Source: a virus. From it: a DNA stretch of 64,000 nucleotides. The translations under genes were made by a program, and so were the position numbers. The notes under the pieces were generated by a model. It did not search any database and was not told the origin of the DNA. It saw only the letters and a list, made by a program, of their open reading frames with translations. Positions 992-49,392 of this stretch are shown piece after piece. The DNA is taken from IMG/VR virus record IMGVR_UViG_3300010389_000002; one strand, given 5' to 3'. Position 1 is the stretch's first letter, and every line of letters begins with the position of its first letter.

Positions 992-2410
992 TCAAGACTT
1001 TACATTACTAGAATATTCTTTCATGCCTGAGGTGTCTCTAATTAATTCAAGCATCGTGATAGCTTCGCTCTTATTTATATCTACATTGTGACCTAATTTA
1101 GATATCAAATACAATCCACTGTTCTCTTCATCATATGGTTGATCCTTTCTAAGATCACCAGCTGCCATGTTGGGGAGCATGACTTTAAGTTTATCACCTA
1201 CCTTTAGTTCTAAATTAACTGGAATTTGGATGTTAAGAACTTGATTCTCAATGCTTTGATAGCGAGAGAATGCTTGTGCCATGTAGAACTTTTGATAATC
1301 GGGGAAAGGATTGTTTCCACTGCCACCATCTCTATCTTCATTAGATCCAGATTCTTGATCACTAAACCATGTCTCGTGATCAATAATAGTTGAAACAATT
1401 CTAGTTGGTCTCTGTGATAAATCTTTCTGGAACTTTCCTAGACTTGTTTGACTTCCTAGGTGTGCTTGGTTAGCAAAAGAGTCTGCCATGTTATAGGTGT
1501 ACTCTTCATAAGATCCTGTGGAATAATTGTAGAAGCATAGGTATGTAGAAAACACACCACTTCTCATCTGATCAAAAAGATCAATCTCTCCTTTAAAAGA
1601 ATACTCGGTGATGATAGTTCTATTCTCAGCTGCCATCTGATCCTTTACTGGTTTGACCGTGTAAGTTTCTACTGGTGCTTGTCCACCAAAAGAATCTGTT
1701 CCATCCGAGAAGTAATAATCTACAGATTTAAAATGAAATCCATCATAGTTTTCGAAGAAAAAGTATCCCGCTGATCCAGATGCTTTCTTGGTATCCTTTG
1801 GCAAGGAACTCTTTCCTTTGGTTTTATTGCTCTCTGTGTTACTAGTAGACTCACTGGAAGGAACAGATGATGTCTTGGGTACAGACTTAGGAGCAAGCTG
1901 TTGGATAATAGTGTGTGCTTTCTTACCATTAGGAAAGAACTTTACTTGATACTTACTATCCTCTACAAATATTGCTTTGTCTGTCTCTAGATACTCCTTA
2001 AGAATCTTGGTAACAATATCATTTGGATATCCACTGAGGGGTTCATTGATTCTAACACCCTCATTGTACATTGCTTCCTTTGATATCAAACTGAGTTGAT
2101 AGGCTTGAGTCTTGTCGGTAAATTTCCTTCCCGAAATCTTATAGACAAAGAACTCATACGTGTACTTTTCTTCAAGAGTATCTTCAAAGACAATCTTTAC
2201 TTCTTCTCCACCTTGAATAGGGAGAGTACCATAAAGGTTCTTTCCTGAGTCCATGATCCATGCTTCAGCATGTAAGAATGGTTTATCAATATCTTCGAAG
2301 TAAGCAAAGTAAGGCATGGCAAACTTAATAGACTCCGAGACTCCATCTACACTAGTGATGGTAGCTTCTAGAACGTTACAGTATTTTACTCCTTTAATTT
2401 GATTTGCCAT
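992..2410 (-). CDS. Probable baseplate hub protein (gp27-like)
   Basis: 472 aa, directly upstream of gp5; C-terminal LNIQIPVNLELKVGDKLKV...SGLYLISKLGH pattern resembles hub proteins. Confidence 0.55.
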   Translation of the reverse strand: MANQIKGVKYCNVLEATITSVDGVSESIKFAMPYFAYFEDIDKPFLHAEAWIMDSGKNLYGTLPIQGGEEVKIVFEDTLEEKYTYEFFVYKISGRKFTDKTQAYQLSLISKEAMYNEGVRINEPLSGYPNDIVTKILKEYLETDKAIFVEDSKYQVKFFPNGKKAHTIIQQLAPKSVPKTSSVPSSESTSNTESNKTKGKSSLPKDTKKASGSAGYFFFENYDGFHFKSVDYYFSDGTDSFGGQAPVETYTVKPVKDQMAAENRTIITEYSFKGEIDLFDQMRSGVFSTYLCFYNYSTGSYEEYTYNMADSFANQAHLGSQTSLGKFQKDLSQRPTRIVSTIIDHETWFSDQESGSNEDRDGGSGNNPFPDYQKFYMAQAFSRYQSIENQVLNIQIPVNLELKVGDKLKVMLPNMAAGDLRKDQPYDEENSGLYLISKLGHNVDINKSEAITMLELIRDTSGMKEYSSNVKS

Positions 2411-4722
2411 TATGTAAAGTTACCTCTTGTTGTTGTTTGATATGTTTGCTGGAATACAGGAGATGTTAATAAACCTCCACCTGTATTACCTCCAATAGTA
2501 TATTGACTGCTTGGAGTATTGCTGGCATTAATTGTTTGGTATACAGCAGGTAACATTATAAATTGTGGTTGACCCATCGATGGCGACATTGATGTTGGTA
2601 CACCCAATGGTTGTGTATTAGATGTTAGTAGCGGTTGTCCTTGTGGTATGTTAACTCGTGGATTATTAGGGCTAGTAGTGTTGCCGCCATACTGAATGCC
2701 TCCATTTAATACAAATTGTGATGGGTCACCATACGTACGAAACGAAGCAGTGGATTTATTATATCCATCAGCATGATCAATGTGTACATGAGGACCAGTC
2801 GAAAGACCTGTGCTACCTGCTAATCCAATGACATCTCCTGCTTTTACTTTCTGTCCATTGGTGACTTTAAGAGTGTTAAAGTGTGCTAGTTTGATGTATC
2901 CGCCAGCATCTAATTTAATGACAGCAAAGTTTCCGTATCCACCGTTGTCTTTCTTCGGTGAATGATCGTTAGCATCTCCCATTACTGCAGCATCAACAAC
3001 AGTTCCTGGATATCCAATAGAAATCTTTTCGTTTTCAGGTACACCAATGTCTAGTCCAGTGTGACCACCAGGATTTCTACCAGATCCTAGATTATCTCTA
3101 ACACCAAGTCCTCTACCAAACATTGATCTAGTAAACTTCTTGCTGTTACCCACTGTCTCGGCAGCTGCCATTGCTGGTGGTCTGTATCTTGGTTGTGTAG
3201 TTGGTTGTGTTGCGGCAGCAGCAGGTCTGCCAAACAATCCACCGAACATACCCCTAAGACCATCTGATATCCTGCCTAGTATTCCTTTCTTCTTCCCTCT
3301 TTTTCCTGAAAGAGCTTTACCATCAACATGAGTTATACCTTTTTCACCGACAGCATTACCTTCAGCACCTTCAGCTGCTGTAGGATCAGAACCAGCAGTG
3401 ACATTGAGTATTGTCTCTGGCAATCCAAAAGCTTTAGCAATTGGTTTGAATGTATTGAGAATAGGAGCAGCAAATGGTCCAGCAATACCCTGTAATACTT
3501 GATTGATAATAGAGAAAGTCAAAGCACCACCCGCCATCGGGATTGCTTGTACTAATTTCGCTACTAGTTCTGGTTTCTGTTCCTCACTTACAGGAGCAGT
3601 TGTCTTTGATTTGTCCTTTGCCTTGCCTAATAGATCTGATACTCCGTTGTTTCTATTGAGAGGGTAGACTCCTTTGTCCTCATCTAATCTTCCCTTTGTG
3701 GGGTTAGTGTAGAGACCGGACTGAATGGTAGGCTCGGGTCTGGTGCCCTCACTCATCATCTTCCTACCAAAACCACCTAAGGCAGGCAGCAGGCTCTTAC
3801 CTGCTCCCAGAATTCTTGACCCAAGTCTTCCTTTCCCTGGTGGTGTTGGTGCCTTCGGTTTGGGTGTCTTCGGAGCGTCTGGTGTTTTTGGTTTTTTATT
3901 TCTTCTTAGTTTATCACCGAGAGCATCAGCACCAAGCTCGCTTGCTATCTCTCCTATTGCATCTGTTAATCCACTGACTAATCCACCTAGGAGTCCACCG
4001 CCACCACCTTCATCATCGTCATCATCCTCTGCTTTCCTGTTTGGATTATCTTCAGGATCTGCAGCTTTAGATTCAATGTCTGCTTCATTCCTAGCAGCTT
4101 CAGCATCATTCTGTGCTTGTTTAAATAGATCTCCCTGTTCTACCTCTACTTCAACTTGATCCTCTGCTATGTCTATGTCACGTTTGATCCACTGCTTTAA
4201 TCTGTCAAGTAGACTAGCAAAGTTACCTAAGTTATTGTTGGTTGTATCCTGTTGATCAGAAGATACATCTTGCTTATTACCTAGTCCCTTAATACCTTCG
4301 GCAACTTTCTGAGTGTTGTCACTGATAGTATTGAGTATAGGAGTCAACCAAGATTGAAGAGGAGCATCTTGTACAAATTCATCGTCACGGATACCTTCAA
4401 GACCCAATTGTGTGACACCAGGGGCATTCTTAATCTCCCCTCGAATCATCTTTTGATATCTTTCTTTCTTAGATAGACCAGGATCATTCTGTTCATCAGG
4501 ATTTACCTGGAACATTCCTTTGGTTCTTCTTAGTTTATCTCCACCAAACTCTGCTGCTAATGCTTTACCAAAGAAGTACCCTCTACCTGTCTCAACTCCG
4601 CTCTCTTTATTTGCTTCTCTCTCCTGAGCTGCCATCTTTCTTGCAGCTTTAATCTTACCCCCAATATACTTGCCGAGATCTCCAGTATCTGCTTGTCTAT
4701 AGTTTCGTACTCGTGCTGCCAT
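2410..4722 (-). CDS. Tape-measure-like tail protein with C-terminal M23 peptidase
   Basis: 770 aa; HTGLD (HxxxD) and TGPHVH (HxH) M23 zinc motifs; low-complexity helical N-terminus; baseplate context. Confidence 0.75.
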   Translation of the reverse strand: MAARVRNYRQADTGDLGKYIGGKIKAARKMAAQEREANKESGVETGRGYFFGKALAAEFGGDKLRRTKGMFQVNPDEQNDPGLSKKERYQKMIRGEIKNAPGVTQLGLEGIRDDEFVQDAPLQSWLTPILNTISDNTQKVAEGIKGLGNKQDVSSDQQDTTNNNLGNFASLLDRLKQWIKRDIDIAEDQVEVEVEQGDLFKQAQNDAEAARNEADIESKAADPEDNPNRKAEDDDDDEGGGGGLLGGLVSGLTDAIGEIASELGADALGDKLRRNKKPKTPDAPKTPKPKAPTPPGKGRLGSRILGAGKSLLPALGGFGRKMMSEGTRPEPTIQSGLYTNPTKGRLDEDKGVYPLNRNNGVSDLLGKAKDKSKTTAPVSEEQKPELVAKLVQAIPMAGGALTFSIINQVLQGIAGPFAAPILNTFKPIAKAFGLPETILNVTAGSDPTAAEGAEGNAVGEKGITHVDGKALSGKRGKKKGILGRISDGLRGMFGGLFGRPAAAATQPTTQPRYRPPAMAAAETVGNSKKFTRSMFGRGLGVRDNLGSGRNPGGHTGLDIGVPENEKISIGYPGTVVDAAVMGDANDHSPKKDNGGYGNFAVIKLDAGGYIKLAHFNTLKVTNGQKVKAGDVIGLAGSTGLSTGPHVHIDHADGYNKSTASFRTYGDPSQFVLNGGIQYGGNTTSPNNPRVNIPQGQPLLTSNTQPLGVPTSMSPSMGQPQFIMLPAVYQTINASNTPSSQYTIGGNTGGGLLTSPVFQQTYQTTTRGNFT

Positions 4723-4801: not shown

Positions 4802-7800
4802 TTAGTAGACTTCCCTGGTGGCATTCTTCATGGCAAAGAAAGTAGATAGTTTCATAGGACCTTCGGGTTGCTCTTGTTCCTGTTGCTGTTGTTGTGGAGC
4901 AGCTGGTTGTCTCTGGATAACAGGGAGGATCATAATCGTGGCACCTTCCATTGGATCTCCGTAAGGTATGGTTGTTGCTGGTCCTGGATTCAATGGCAGT
5001 GACGTTAGTATTGCCTGTCCTGTAGGTTGCTGTTGTGGTTGTGCTGGTAGTGGCGACGCTGGTAAGGTTGGTCCAGTGTTCTGAATTAGTCTGACTGGAT
5101 TCTCTGGTTGTGGGTCCATGGAAGGAGCAGCAGTATTAGTTAGACCCATGCTAGTAATCATTTGATCGTAAGCATCAGCTGTATATCTTTGTTGTACATC
5201 TGCTGCTGGTCTTTCCCAATACTTCATCCAATCATATGCTGCTGCACCTGGAGAAGAAAATGGCGTAGCAAGATATGTAGGACCATGATCTTCACCCAGA
5301 GCATAATCAATTTGTCCCTGCCAGTTTGATTGCCAGTCAGGAACTGCTGCCATCATGTTCTCTGCTCTACCACCATTCCATTGGAACAATCCAAACGAAC
5401 CAGCACCAGGATCATTAGGATTGTGTGCTCCTAGTTTGAATCCAGATTCTCTACTGATGTTAGCCGTGATTCCCTTGGCATGATTCTCACTCATACCTTT
5501 AGACAATAGGTAACGATAAACTTCACTAGCTGTAGTTCTTCCTTCTCCACCACCCAAGTTAGGAATGATGGGTGCTCCTGTTCCTCTGGATCTAGTAGTG
5601 CCAGTAGAATCATCTGTTAGTCCCAGGAACGACAGTAATCCTTCAAACATACCACCGAAAGGATTAAACTGATCCATATCCTGTCCTGATTTCTCACCAG
5701 CGCCACCACCAATGTCAGCAGGGAAACTATACTTCTCCATGCCAAACGCTTTAACTAATGGAGCAAGATAGTTGGTCATGTATGGTCTAGCAGCTGCTCC
5801 AAAAATACCAGACTGTTTCAATACAGTATCGATTGCCCCTAAGATAGCAGCAGCACCCATGTCTGTAACTGAGCTAGTAGCATCTACTTGATCTATTACT
5901 TCTACTAACTCTTTATCACTTGCTACTAATTCATCACCTGCTTCACCAATCATCACTTTCTCTCGTGCTGATTCAATCATAGGTTTATTAACTAAATCAT
6001 CCTCTTTGATTCTTGGACCTTGGATCTCCTCTAATACAGGAAGAGTACCTTCACTTAACTTCTCTGCTCCTGGATAACTATCTCTAAATTCTTTTTCAAA
6101 TTTTAAATAATCATCTATGTCTTCCTCTACATAACCTTCTGCTCTTCTTTTCTTAACCCATTCCTCTTTTGCTTTGTCTTTATCTGCGTTAAACTTTTCT
6201 TCCCACTTCTGTTGCTCTGTCTTCTCTTCAGGTTTCGGACCCATCTTGTCCATCATTTCTTTCTGTGCTTCATCATTGCCATAGATATTACCGAACCCAC
6301 CCTTCTCGTCAGGGATAACATTCAAGAAGTCAATACGATTCATCCACCCACGAGTGTACTCTCTAAGTCTGGCATCAAACTTGGCAAGATTGTGTGCTTG
6401 CTTCTCTCTGTCTTCTTCATTAAGGAATGGATACCTAACCGCTTCGACAGCATACCTGAAAGGAGCACCGATAGCATCGAGTGCTACACCAGTTCCCTTT
6501 AGTGTTTCATTGAGTGCTCCCTCTCCTTCATTCGTTAGTTGAAAGAGTCCTTCGCCAGCAGCAGAAGCAGCAAGACCAGCACCAGATACGATAGCAGCAG
6601 CAGTAGCAGCACCTATGCTACCTGCTTGTGTTACTGCTCCAGCAGTTTGTGTAACAGCTTGGGATCCTGCTTGGGCTCCTCTCTGTAGTGCTTGTTGTAC
6701 TGTTTTCTTTACACCTTCTCCCTTTATCCTATCAAATATTTTATCTTGCGCTAGTTCAGTGCCGATGTCTATAGCAAAAGAACCTAAGGCTCCAAGTATT
6801 CCATCACCACCACCTTCATCATCACCTTTCTTCTTACCTCCGAAGAGGTTTCGAATCATCTTGATAAGATTAGGTAGTCCACCTTCAGCACGGAGATACT
6901 TTCTAAATCCAGCACCACCGCCACCACCTTCTTCTATCTTTGCCTGGTTAGCAGCTGCTTCATCAGCATTAGCAGTGTCTTCTTGGATATCTAATGACGC
7001 TTGCTTGGCAACTAGAAGTTGTTTTTCCGTGGAAACTTTTTGACCTAATAGTTTATTGATCTCATTAATCTTATCATTAATAGCTTGGGTAGTTACTGCT
7101 CCTGTAGTATCTTTCTGGACAGTGTTATCAAACTGAGTGACAGCCATACTAAATGCTGCCATGGTGTCAGCATAAGTATCATTCAGTACCTGTATCTCCG
7201 GACCTATGCCTACTTCACCCAGACCACCAGCAGGTTGAGGCTCTTCTTGCTTTGGTGCTGGTAGTGTGGAAGACATCAATGGTCTTACACTAGCACCGAA
7301 TCTTTCTCCTCTAGATAGACCAGGATCATTCTGAGCATCAGGATTTACCTGGAACATTCCCTTTGTTCGGGCAAGTTTGTCACCACCAAACTCAAATCCT
7401 AATGCTTTGGTGATGAAACGATCTTTGAGGAAGCTTCTGTTCTTTAGATCCTCAGGGGATCCACCCATGTCGATGAATTCTTTTCTGGCACGAGCAGCAT
7501 TAGTGAAAGCTGACTTTAATTTTATGCCTACGAAATCATTAAAAGTCTTTGCCTTGGATGCATCGGTGCTTCTATACTTAGGATCATCAACCTTAGGTGC
7601 TACAGATACAGTAGATTTTGTTGATGATACTACTTCTTTCTGCTTTCTCTTCTTCCTTGGCAGTGGAGCAGGCGGAGCAACGATGGTTTCAATTAAAGGA
7701 TCTAAAAGATTCTTATTGAATCCCTCTGCCATTCTCTGGGCAGTAGTTTTCTTATCTGATTTCTTTTTCTTAAAAGTATTCTTTATCCCAGGGAGTCTTA

Positions 7801-8251
7801 GTCTCTCTGGAGCACGTAACTTCTGTTCTGGTGTTGATTCAAACGGAGCTTCAATCTGAATAACAATGGGTTCATCGGGTTGCTTCTGCTCAACCTCGAT
7901 AATCTCTACCTCTACAGGAATATCTTCTGATTCCTGTGTAGCATTAGGAGTATCAACTAAGTACCTATCAATGATCCACTCTTGATATTCTCTTTCTGCT
8001 TCGCCACTGGTACTACTAGTTTGAAGCATGGGATATCCATCTTCATCCTGCTTCATGTTAGCGATGATCTTGTCAGCATCGCCACTAGATAGACTTCTAT
8101 CGTGTAATTTAAAATAACTGGTGCCGCTATCGTCTTTGCCACCAGTTAGTTTTGCCTTAAGTATATTAAAGATACGATCGGGCTGCCCACCACCAGCCAC
8201 GCCTGGTCTATACCATTCTACTGATGCTGGTGCTGGTAGGTTGAACATCAT
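4802..8251 (-). CDS. Tape-measure-like tail protein with C-terminal phage tail lysozyme-like domain
   Basis: 1149 aa; YLLSKGMSENHAKGITANISRESGF...GSFGLFQWNGGR...WERP motif; Ala/Gly-rich helical middle; follows gp26/gp51. Confidence 0.75.
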   Translation of the reverse strand: MMFNLPAPASVEWYRPGVAGGGQPDRIFNILKAKLTGGKDDSGTSYFKLHDRSLSSGDADKIIANMKQDEDGYPMLQTSSTSGEAEREYQEWIIDRYLVDTPNATQESEDIPVEVEIIEVEQKQPDEPIVIQIEAPFESTPEQKLRAPERLRLPGIKNTFKKKKSDKKTTAQRMAEGFNKNLLDPLIETIVAPPAPLPRKKRKQKEVVSSTKSTVSVAPKVDDPKYRSTDASKAKTFNDFVGIKLKSAFTNAARARKEFIDMGGSPEDLKNRSFLKDRFITKALGFEFGGDKLARTKGMFQVNPDAQNDPGLSRGERFGASVRPLMSSTLPAPKQEEPQPAGGLGEVGIGPEIQVLNDTYADTMAAFSMAVTQFDNTVQKDTTGAVTTQAINDKINEINKLLGQKVSTEKQLLVAKQASLDIQEDTANADEAAANQAKIEEGGGGGAGFRKYLRAEGGLPNLIKMIRNLFGGKKKGDDEGGGDGILGALGSFAIDIGTELAQDKIFDRIKGEGVKKTVQQALQRGAQAGSQAVTQTAGAVTQAGSIGAATAAAIVSGAGLAASAAGEGLFQLTNEGEGALNETLKGTGVALDAIGAPFRYAVEAVRYPFLNEEDREKQAHNLAKFDARLREYTRGWMNRIDFLNVIPDEKGGFGNIYGNDEAQKEMMDKMGPKPEEKTEQQKWEEKFNADKDKAKEEWVKKRRAEGYVEEDIDDYLKFEKEFRDSYPGAEKLSEGTLPVLEEIQGPRIKEDDLVNKPMIESAREKVMIGEAGDELVASDKELVEVIDQVDATSSVTDMGAAAILGAIDTVLKQSGIFGAAARPYMTNYLAPLVKAFGMEKYSFPADIGGGAGEKSGQDMDQFNPFGGMFEGLLSFLGLTDDSTGTTRSRGTGAPIIPNLGGGEGRTTASEVYRYLLSKGMSENHAKGITANISRESGFKLGAHNPNDPGAGSFGLFQWNGGRAENMMAAVPDWQSNWQGQIDYALGEDHGPTYLATPFSSPGAAAYDWMKYWERPAADVQQRYTADAYDQMITSMGLTNTAAPSMDPQPENPVRLIQNTGPTLPASPLPAQPQQQPTGQAILTSLPLNPGPATTIPYGDPMEGATIMILPVIQRQPAAPQQQQQEQEQPEGPMKLSTFFAMKNATREVY

Positions 8252-8424
8252 CGCTGTGCTGCTTTCCTTTGCTCTTCTTTTTCTTTCATAAGATTGTTAA
8301 GCATAGCGATGTAGATTTCCCTCTCAAAGGGAATCATATTTTCAATCTCCGTCAAACTATATTTATGCTCCTGCATCAGGATGAAGTTTGTTCTATAATA
8401 ATTTTGAAGGGTGTTATAGAACAA
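8248..8424 (-). CDS. gp51: Baseplate hub assembly protein gp51-like (58 aa from TTG; possibly made only as a frameshift extension of gp26)
   Basis: Hand translation LFYNTLQNYYRTNFILMQEHKYSLTEIENMIPFEREIYIAML matches the conserved T4-like gp51 pattern; not in ORF track. Confidence 0.8.
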   Translation of the reverse strand: MFYNTLQNYYRTNFILMQEHKYSLTEIENMIPFEREIYIAMLNNLMKEKEEQRKAAQR

Positions 8425-8439
8425 ACTTATCCGAAAAAA
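8384..8439 (-). promoter_or_regulatory. Candidate -1 programmed ribosomal frameshift signal
   Basis: Heptamer T TTT TTC (8433-8439) in gp26 frame, 4-nt spacer, perfect 15-bp inverted repeat 8414-8428/8384-8398. Confidence 0.7.
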
Positions 8440-9242
8440 GACTGGAGACCTTCTAATCTGTAGGTAGACTCGACACCAGTGTTTGGATTGACAACAGTAA
8501 AATCATGATACAACTTCGGCATAGTTGTGAAGAAATCTTGTAACTTTTCGAACTGCTTCTGTGTCATGCCCTCGATAAAGGAAACAATCTCAGACTTCTT
8601 AGTGTCAGCAGCATCCCAAACCTCATCACCCTGGAAGATTTGATCCACACAGTCAGCAATCATATCAAATAGTTCTTGTGTATCATCAAGACTCTTGTTC
8701 AATAGAGTTACATCAATGAACTGTTTGATACCAGGATACTTCATGACTAGACCGAGATCATCAGACAGCATGATTTTATTACTATGTCCTTCTGGCTTAT
8801 GTACCTGTACTTCCTCAAGATTGATAGCAGTCATGACCTCAGTCTCTCGGTCATCCTTACAAACCACCTTGAGTTTGATAACTTCACCAGCAGAGGCAGA
8901 TCTAATCTTCAAGAACAAATACTCTAGATCAAAGTTAGCTAGGTCTTCGATCTTAACTCTAGAAACAATACATGCTCTCAGAATGTCTTTGATTGTTTCC
9001 CTTACTTTATCCTCCCAATCTTTTCTTTCTTCTGCTTCAATTTTATACAGTTCATCCTTGGTCTCGGGAGGAAGCTGAGCAAAAGGAATACCACCCAGTT
9101 GATTAGGCAACTCGGGTTCTGATTCCATTGTAAACAACAATAGTTTTTCTTCCTTGACTAGAAAAGGACGATACTTTACTTTTCTACCAGTCGATGGAAT
9201 TGTGTCTTCAAAAGTAGGTACTGTTGGACTAGGTAAAGACAT
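8427..9242 (-). CDS. gp26: Baseplate hub assembly chaperone gp26
   Basis: PSTGRKVKYRPFLVKEEKLLL, DLEYLFLKIRSASAGE, C-terminal LEGLQSFF. Confidence 0.88.
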   Translation of the reverse strand: MSLPSPTVPTFEDTIPSTGRKVKYRPFLVKEEKLLLFTMESEPELPNQLGGIPFAQLPPETKDELYKIEAEERKDWEDKVRETIKDILRACIVSRVKIEDLANFDLEYLFLKIRSASAGEVIKLKVVCKDDRETEVMTAINLEEVQVHKPEGHSNKIMLSDDLGLVMKYPGIKQFIDVTLLNKSLDDTQELFDMIADCVDQIFQGDEVWDAADTKKSEIVSFIEGMTQKQFEKLQDFFTTMPKLYHDFTVVNPNTGVESTYRLEGLQSFFG

Positions 9243-9277: not shown

Positions 9278-9982
9278 TTAGTTTTTAATTTTATTATAAG
9301 TTACTAGGTGCTTGGAGTAATAAAAGTTAGCAGTAACCTTTACAATTTGTGAGGCACCATAGGACATAGGTACAGCATCAATACTGTAAGGATAAGCATC
9401 AATCATTGTGTAGGCAATGGGTGCCTGACCATTAGCAGCTGCCTTATTCCTGTCTGTCTTTGTGATAATAATTGTAGAGAGATAATCCTCTGGGTAGTTT
9501 AGTCTAGTAGTACGTCCAGCATCCACTCTCTTACCCGCTTCATTCTTAACTTGACTTAGACTTCTGTTAGTAAAATTAGAACCCGCTGGAGTCTGTACCT
9601 TTTCATTATCTCCTTCATACTCATCAAAGATATATCCATACCATAAATTTAAAAACTTAAGTGACAACAGGTTAGCATCGCCCATCCACCCTAGTTGGAA
9701 GTCATTATAAACCTTGGTGTGTGGGTACTTAACTAATCCTTCACCAAGAAATCTTCCACTGATCTCACCGGTAGCAGCTTGAATGTTAGGGAGTTGTGCT
9801 TCTTCACAAAGCAACTTCAAAGTAGTACCAGTGCTACTATCATTGCCAAACTCAATACCATAGGTCTTCATCCTATCTGTGAGTGTATCAGGGAGAGTAA
9901 ACTCCACGTCGAAATTATTACTTAGAGAAAATCCACCGTTGTTATTAACGTTTTCAATAAATCTTGAAAGGGAACCTGCCAC
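9278..9982 (-). CDS. Baseplate tail-tube initiator gp54-like (tube fold)
   Basis: LLCEEAQLPNIQ, AYPYSIDAVPMSYG, KVTANFYY motifs; position next to gp4. Confidence 0.65.
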   Translation of the reverse strand: MAGSLSRFIENVNNNGGFSLSNNFDVEFTLPDTLTDRMKTYGIEFGNDSSTGTTLKLLCEEAQLPNIQAATGEISGRFLGEGLVKYPHTKVYNDFQLGWMGDANLLSLKFLNLWYGYIFDEYEGDNEKVQTPAGSNFTNRSLSQVKNEAGKRVDAGRTTRLNYPEDYLSTIIITKTDRNKAAANGQAPIAYTMIDAYPYSIDAVPMSYGASQIVKVTANFYYSKHLVTYNKIKN

Positions 9983-10014: not shown

Positions 10015-10471
10015 GGCTTACTCTGGGATATACAAGCCCAATAATCCTCAGAAATACAGAGGTAATCCTACCAGGATTATCTTTCGTTCACTGTGGGAAC
10101 GTAAGTTCATGGATTTCTGTGATAAAAATCCTAACATCATGGAATGGGGGAGTGAAGAAGTTATTATTCCCTATCGTTGTCCTACCGATGGCAGAGTTCA
10201 TAGATACTACCCTGACTTCTACATCAAAGTCAAGAGTAGATCAGGACTCATCAGTAAGTACATCATTGAGGTGAAGCCTAAGAAGCAAACAAAGAAACCA
10301 AATGAAAACCCAAAGAGAAAGAGTGCTGCTTGGAAAAGAGAAGTTCAAACTTACCTAAAGAATCGTGCTAAGTGGTCAGCCGCTGAGAACTTCTGTGAAG
10401 ATAGACAGATGAAGTTTATGATACTGACCGAAGATCATTTAGGAATCAAGAACAATGGCAAAGAATCGTAA
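10013..10471 (+). CDS. gp4: Head completion protein gp4
   Basis: YKPNNPQKYRGNP...FRSLWERKFM...WGSEE...RYYPDF...IEVKP. Confidence 0.92.
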   Translation: MAYSGIYKPNNPQKYRGNPTRIIFRSLWERKFMDFCDKNPNIMEWGSEEVIIPYRCPTDGRVHRYYPDFYIKVKSRSGLISKYIIEVKPKKQTKKPNENPKRKSAAWKREVQTYLKNRAKWSAAENFCEDRQMKFMILTEDHLGIKNNGKES

Positions 10472-49179: not shown

Positions 49180-49392
49180 CTATAAGTTATTTATACTACG
49201 AATATCCTTGACCCAGGCACGAAACATCTCCCCACCTTCGGTAATAGCAATAATATAGTTCACGCCAGCACGATGGATCTTACCCTTCTGTCCTGTGATA
49301 GATGACATAATAATATCACCTTCTTGGAATACTTCCGTCTGTCTGTACTGCTGACGGATAGCACGTTCTCTAAGCTTTCTAAAGTCTTTCAT
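49180..49392 (-). CDS. Small SH3-like hypothetical protein
   Basis: FQEGDII..G.I..GVNYII..FRAWVKDI. Confidence 0.6.
   Translation of the reverse strand: MKDFRKLRERAIRQQYRQTEVFQEGDIIMSSITGQKGKIHRAGVNYIIAITEGGEMFRAWVKDIRSINNL

Follow-up and report, generated by a model that had tools for sequence, protein, structure and literature searches.

The stretch of viral DNA analyzed here, 64,000 nucleotides (nt) of IMG/VR virus record IMGVR_UViG_3300010389_000002 and referred to below as the window, carries a T4-like gp26-type gene whose 3' end bears a predicted -1 ribosomal frameshift signal leading into the gp51 frame. Profile matches, gp32 among them, identify the window as a T4-like phage. Its closest cultured relatives are cyanomyoviruses, with a gp26 identity of ~50%, and near-identical DNA is present in metagenomes of seawater, marine sediment, and salt marsh. 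On the minus strand a tail-tube-type gene is followed by the gp26-type open reading frame (ORF), a small ORF in the -1 frame, and a gene for a tail protein of 1149 amino acids (aa). The gp26-type ORF (8427..9242, minus strand; TAA 8429-8427) encodes in frame 0 a hub/tail assembly chaperone of 271 aa, the short form, which matches PF12322 T4_baseplate (E 8.2e-63; 212 bits vs a cut-off of 24.5) and phrog_150 (E 1e-67), and it is the only PF12322-type gene within the window. The gp51-type C-terminal tail lies in the -1 frame (8248..8433, minus strand; 61 residues, RISLFYN...AAQR; TGA 8250-8248). This tail matches phrog_634 (E 3e-25), a family labeled 'baseplate hub assembly catalyst', and also the C-terminal end of the phrog_150 profile; it had no match in the Pfam copy used, which lacks PF28602. 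PF28602 ('Gp51_C') does appear in the precomputed Pfam annotation of ORFs of 42-43 aa in contigs L099, L100, and L103.

The gp26-type ORF ends, on the minus strand, with GGT CTC CAG TCT TTT TTC GGA TAA GTTTGTTC. Within this sequence the heptamer T_TTT_TTC (8439-8433; U_UUU_UUC in the RNA), the predicted -1 shift site, stands in the X_XXY_YYZ register of frame 0. A spacer of 4 nt (GGAT) separates it from a candidate stimulatory hairpin (8384..8428, minus strand) with a perfect 15-bp stem and a 15-nt loop, in which AAGTTTGTTCTATAA (8428-8414) pairs with TTATAGAACAAACTT (8398-8384). On the 5' side is a Shine-Dalgarno (SD)-like element, GAAGGT (8448..8453, minus strand; anti-SD duplex energy -4.5 kcal/mol), whose GG is separated from the heptamer by 9 nt. 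The -1 frame, which reads FFRISLFYNTLQNYYRTNF, is open from ~20 codons upstream of the heptamer to the TGA at 8250-8248, so that the predicted products are a short form of 271 aa and a long form of 331 aa (270 + 61). Neither start codon of the gp51 frame is well placed for initiation of its own: TTG 8424-8422, 2 nt past the gp26 stop, sits in the 5' arm of the stem, and the first ATG, at 8376-8374, has no SD sequence. An initial annotation, made from the letters of the window alone, had named the two genes gp26 and gp51 and had described the heptamer, the stem and its distance, the open -1 frame with its two products, and a gp51 without a convincing SD whose TTG is buried in the stem; all of this was borne out, with the family matches given above upholding the gene names.

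Folding of 8340-8450 gave -33.4 kcal/mol vs -17.3 +/- 3.2 for dinucleotide shuffles (z = -4.97), and 0 of 200 shuffles folded as well. Against synonymous-codon shuffles of the -1 frame the junction still had z = -3.6, and the local hairpin alone is strong (-20 kcal/mol). The hairpin was also considered as an intrinsic terminator, a role that was rejected as it has no T tract and gave no minus-strand terminator match. Contigs from four independent metagenome assemblies span the site free of indels, and the frame break is therefore not a homopolymer sequencing error. One SNP among the covering contigs, at 8410, falls in the hairpin loop and does not alter the -1-frame protein.

Taken alone, the heptamer is unremarkable, and its significance comes from comparative data. 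Annotated phages (Sf-FP1, Syn1, P-SSM2, HTVC008M, Cr30, Aeh1, LPCS28, Vibrio K469, and a Kuttervirus) were compared together with 88 IMG/VR loci, from a profile search built on a 6-sequence alignment, and 6 contigs of closer relatives, which gave a set of 91 distinct junctions. An in-frame T_TTT_TTY was found in 89 of the 91 (T_TTT_TTC in 87, T_TTT_TTT in 2), and in 87 of these 89 it stands one codon ahead of the stop. The groups that carry it are Kyanoviridae, a pelagiphage, Caulobacter phage Cr30, and, among Straboviridae, Aeh1 and LPCS28. The residue preceding Phe-Phe is variable (S/N/D/A/T), yet the third base of its codon is T in every case: TCT 32 times, AGT 25, AAT 25, GAT 6, and GCT once, with ACT in contig L103 of a closer relative. 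Elsewhere in the same genes, T-ending codons for those amino acids make up 39-82%. Synonymous codons are available at 64 conserved columns, of which the two Phe columns of the heptamer alone are frozen (TTT in 89/89, TTC in 87/89), while the major codon accounts for 55-94% in the other Phe columns of the gene. TTC is kept at the second of these columns although TTT is the preferred Phe codon, and its C is also the first base of a conserved Arg in the -1 frame. Fusions in which the two frames had healed into one were sought among the 120 best database homologues and none was present, all of these proteins having 238-271 aa, which argues that both forms are needed.

Two exceptions that have no canonical heptamer belong to Vibrio phage K469 and Salmonella Kuttervirus aagejoakim. 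The K469 junction (locus 2070-2280) reads CTT TTT GCG TAA TG ATG, where an ATG overlaps the stop and an ORF of 60 aa is annotated. The Kuttervirus aagejoakim junction (2130-2330) reads GAG ATT TTC ATT TAA, and an unannotated gp51-like tail (…MPWHL…) follows in the -1 frame with no start codon; this phage may shift at another site.

Beyond the slip site, the -1 frame evolves as protein-coding sequence. Just past the gp26 stop its entropy by codon position is 0.86/0.72/1.41, the periodicity of coding DNA, and from the slip site onward the peptide FFR[IV][AS][LM]F.N.LE.YY.TNF.LMQHHKYSLTE is conserved. In 36 of 87 junctions the first ATG of this frame comes only at codon 19. In Aeh1, LPCS28, and HTVC008M there is no start codon near the gp26 stop, and in Aeh1 and LPCS28 the heptamer and the tail are both present with the tail unannotated. 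None of the 9 annotated records inspected marks a joined coding sequence at the gp26/gp51 junction, as the initial annotation had expected of genes that are normally listed as separate.

The RNA around the junction is constrained as well. Each sequence was folded just 3' of the heptamer and compared with its own synonymous-codon shuffles; the minimum free energy averaged -14.3 kcal/mol vs -8.0 in the shuffles, the mean z was -2.6, and z fell below -1 in 85% of junctions. Hairpins of differing sequence are thus kept beyond what the protein requires. In a subclade of 17 sequences that have the window-type 15-bp helix, 92.5% of cells are paired vs 40-52% in slid controls, and 6 of the subclade sequences carry a compensatory C-G to U-A double change. 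Upstream, an SD-like GAGG/GGAGG lies 9-10 nt from the heptamer, usually in the form GAGGG/GGAGGG among relatives. Mean anti-SD duplex energy at this place is -6.6 vs -1.4 kcal/mol in background windows, and 69% of junctions, vs 6.5% of background windows, attain -6 kcal/mol or stronger. The element arises from a conserved Glu-Gly whose Glu codon is GAG in 56 cases and GAA in 4, with GAA preferred otherwise. As it lies ~24 nt from the start codon next to the gp26 stop, it is too far from any start past the stop to serve in initiation.

The same two modules are arranged differently in T4. There, gp26 is a PF12322 domain alone, and gp51 (249 aa) joins a full PF12322 domain (residues 1-201, E 4e-52) to a tail that has a phrog_634 match and is homologous to the gp51-type tail of the window. 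The short form of the window is accordingly a gp26 homologue, and its predicted long form is ordered like T4 gp51, with PF12322 first and the phrog_634 tail second, and the shift we propose is needed to join them. T4 differs in using two diverged paralogues that are divergently transcribed (~20% identity over a 161-residue stretch aligned by BLASTP), where the window has one gene and predicted recoding. T4 gene 26 ends in GAG TTC TTT GAG TTA CTA TAA, with no slippery site. Counted over whole records, T4 has two PF12322 genes and Syn1, P-SSM2, Aeh1, and LPCS28, all with the heptamer, have one each; the long form is therefore either encoded separately, as in T4, or reachable only through a shift. 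In a review of the T4 tail, gp26 and gp51 are listed as hub assembly chaperones, and gp51 is described as essential for assembly, as having no known function, and as missing from the particle (PMC3004832).

Together, these observations suggest that the end of the gp26-type gene carries a programmed -1 ribosomal frameshift that yields a short and a long chaperone, a reading to which we assign a probability of about 0.8. Most ribosomes would read TCT TTT TTC GGA and stop, releasing the short form. A minority, with a tRNA-Phe on each codon of UUU-UUC, would pause at the 15-bp hairpin, slip back by one base to U-UUU-UU, and go on in the -1 frame (CGG AUA AGU UUG), adding the 61-residue 'gp51' tail to give the long form. 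If so, the small 'gp51' ORF of cyanophages would be a C-terminal extension of gp26 and not a free-standing gene, and of the two products the short one would be the counterpart of T4 gp26 and the long one that of T4 gp51. If lambda gpG/gpGT is a guide, the shared body may bind the tape-measure or hub protein, the tail may recruit a second partner, and the shift may set a fixed ratio of short to long form. The signal, its conservation, the coding -1 frame, and an architecture equivalent to that of T4 gp51 were observed; the occurrence of the shift, its efficiency, and the partners of each form we infer. The proposal of the initial annotation that gp26 and gp51 form a G/GT-type frameshift pair gains support from the conserved slip site, the coding -1 frame, the excess of hairpin structure, and the T4 gp51-like architecture. 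Its suggestion to look for the heptamer at gp26/gp51 junctions of other T4-like phages was answered by the 89 of 91 that have it, frozen at synonymous sites; the companion expectation of a conserved, covarying stem held for the structural excess and for the compensatory change within the subclade, with no single consensus structure common to the whole family.

That last result is one of several points that weigh against a frameshift here. RNAalifold over 87 junctions returned no family-wide consensus structure, which we attribute to hairpins that differ in register among clades. The SD-like element of the window itself is weak (GAAGG), its 4-nt spacer is below the usual 5-9 nt, and U_UUU_UUC is not known as one of the classic high-efficiency bacterial heptamers. 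An ATG occurs 2-3 codons past the slip site in 36 of 87 junctions, with TTG at that place in the window, and independent initiation may occur to some extent in the ~40% of relatives that have an ATG 2 nt past the stop. A hairpin that hides a start codon beside a stop would also fit coupling of termination to reinitiation. The last two points belong to an alternative in which gp51 is a small protein in its own right, of 58 aa if translation begins at TTG 8424 and of 42 aa if it begins at ATG 8376: ribosomes ending gp26 would open the hairpin and reinitiate at the start codon in its 5' arm, and the T run would reflect mere conservation of Phe-Phe. The position of the TTG, inside the stem and 2 nt past the stop, suits this alternative, as do the P-SSM2 record, which annotates gp51 from its ATG near the stop, and the ORF of 42-43 aa that gene callers report after gp26 in contigs of closer relatives. 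It leaves unexplained, however, why the variable codon before Phe-Phe always has T as its third base and why the first Phe is TTT in 89 of 89. It also has to contend with the 36 of 87 lineages that have no ATG for 19 codons while conserving those codons as protein, with Aeh1, LPCS28, and HTVC008M, which have no start codon near the stop at all, with an SD-like element too distant from that start, and with a T4 tail that is found in no other form than joined to a gp26-type domain. At the early ATG position, Met and Leu alternate as the conserved residue. We consider independent synthesis of gp51 unlikely.

The long form could also arise through transcriptional slippage, in which RNA polymerase adds one U in the T run, so that the two ORFs share a frame in the mRNA. 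The T run is indeed homopolymeric and reaches T8 in HTVC008M and T7 in Cr30, and the protein would be identical to that made by ribosomal slippage. The run is only 6 T long in 87 of the 91 junctions, however, while known bacterial transcriptional slippage sites need ~8-9 or more, and the conserved 3' hairpin and the 5' SD-like element at dnaX-like spacing are stimulators of ribosomal shifting; we regard this route as very improbable. Least credible of all would be that no recoding takes place and that the heptamer, hairpin, and open frame are coincidental or serve mRNA stability or processing. AT-rich genes do commonly hold in-frame heptamers. Chance would nevertheless have to account for a combination conserved over Kyanoviridae, a pelagiphage, Cr30, Aeh1, and LPCS28 with constraint at synonymous sites, and the hairpin has no terminator-like tail.

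The predicted -1 frameshift resembles two well-known systems in different respects. For lambda gpG/gpGT and for the tail assembly chaperone genes of long-tailed phages more widely, a conserved -1 frameshift was reportedly described by Levin, Hendrix, and Casjens (in 1993) and by Xu, Hendrix, and Duda (in 2004), and it has been reviewed (PMC5009743). Like lambda G and T, the window ORFs are an overlapping pair between a tail tube gene and the gene of a very large tail protein, with an X_XXY_YYZ heptamer one or two codons ahead of the stop, a -1-frame extension that has no initiation signals of its own, and, as predicted, a short and a long product with a common N-terminal body. The need for T4 gp51 in assembly, together with its absence from the particle, adds to the likeness (PMC3004832). 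In contrast to lambda, the window proteins belong to PF12322 and not to the gpG family, their body of ~240-270 aa greatly exceeds gpG in size, an SD-like element precedes a heptamer of U_UUU_UUC, the T4 proteins are assigned to assembly of the baseplate hub rather than to tube polymerization, and the downstream gene is a tape-measure candidate by position. With E. coli dnaX the window shares a tripartite layout of an SD-like GAGG 9-10 nt on the 5' side, a heptamer, and a hairpin a few nt on the 3' side. The dnaX heptamer is A_AAA_AAG, however, the dnaX shift brings termination forward and shortens the product where the predicted shift in the window would extend the protein, and the window's own SD-like element is weak.

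We also compared gp26 with known structures. The AlphaFold2 model of gp26 has a predicted local distance difference test (pLDDT) score of 88, and Foldseek found no match for it in PDB or AFDB Swiss-Prot. In an exhaustive structural search with the full-length model, chains 3KLU, 2OB9, and 3FGX ranked 1, 2, and 4 of 48,161 with weak Z scores of 5.0-5.2 over residues 1 to ~125. These three are phage tail assembly chaperones (PMC9603447), 2OB9 being that of HK97. With the N-domain alone they scored higher (Z 5.7-5.9) but ranked only 17-32, behind generic helical hairpins. A likeness of the gp26 model to gpG-type chaperone folds at Z 5-6 is suggestive and offers a lead towards homology.

On balance we lean slightly towards a broader hypothesis, in which gp26/gp51 of the T4 superfamily are true counterparts, and possibly distant homologues, of gpG/gpGT. 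The -1 frameshift would then be ancestral and by far the commonest arrangement in T4-like phages (cyanophages, pelagiphages, Aeh1-like phages, and others), the two genes of T4 would be a derived duplication that replaced recoding, and the 'catalytic' gp51 of T4 would be a GT-type chaperone. Full-text literature searches and a 2016 recoding review yielded no published report of a gp26/gp51 frameshift, and the predicted signal would be a variant, apparently unpublished, of the tail-chaperone frameshift known from other protein families. If the frameshift is real, gp26 and gp51 would be a single assembly chaperone made in a short and a long version, and the T4 superfamily would join the recoding rule of lambda-, P2-, and Mu-like phages, extending that rule to the one large long-tailed group for which the literature searched gives no prior description. 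In hundreds of T4-like genomes 'gp51' is listed as a tiny gene of its own or overlooked entirely, and these annotations would be systematically wrong. The contrast of recoding in most lineages with gene duplication in T4 would offer a natural experiment.

The genes on either side belong to the tail as well. Directly upstream of gp26 lies the tail-tube-type gene (9278..9982, minus strand; 234 aa), which matches PF23849 Phage_TTP_2 (E 1.2e-50) and phrog_45, tail tube. Downstream, the gene of the 1149-aa tail protein (4802..8251, minus strand) begins with an ATG that overlaps the stop of the gp51 tail (ATGA). Its product has a tail-lysozyme domain (PF18013 Phage_lysozyme2, E 7e-21) and matches phrog_9570, annotated as tape measure protein (E 1e-10), a match confined to residues 905-1021, the stretch that PF18013 also matches. 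The initial annotation had placed the frameshift just upstream of a tape-measure-like gene; the position agrees, and relatives' records annotate the gene at this place as tape measure, while BLASTP found no sequence similarity between the 1149-aa protein and T4 gp29. The protein is thus a positional candidate for the tape measure, by location and by the annotation of relatives. It and the adjacent large tail protein (2410-4722, minus strand) both match phrog_5453, one of the two ending in an M23 peptidase domain and the other having the tail-lysozyme domain.

The gp51 tail contains a further motif, CATAAATA (8360-8367, minus strand), which encodes His-Lys-Tyr of HKYSLTE and is kept at synonymous sites; ATAAATA occupies this place in 76 of 87 related junctions. 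The motif resembles the T4-type late promoter, TATAAATA, and it recurs, for example at 10015 ahead of the tube gene and at 49195, 47846, and 24440, 33-60 nt upstream of several minus-strand ORF starts in the window. The copy in the gp51 tail may serve the 1149-aa gene as an internal late promoter. A 35-nt block at 8333-8367 is common to many different metagenome contigs. Within gp26 itself, an insert of ~30 residues (PELPNQLGG...EERKDWEDK; residues ~41-75, window 9065-9170) is found in the window phage and its closest relatives, which have 271-aa forms, and is absent from cyanophage gp26 proteins of 238-241 aa. In the predicted model this insert falls in a long helix formed by residues 59-91.

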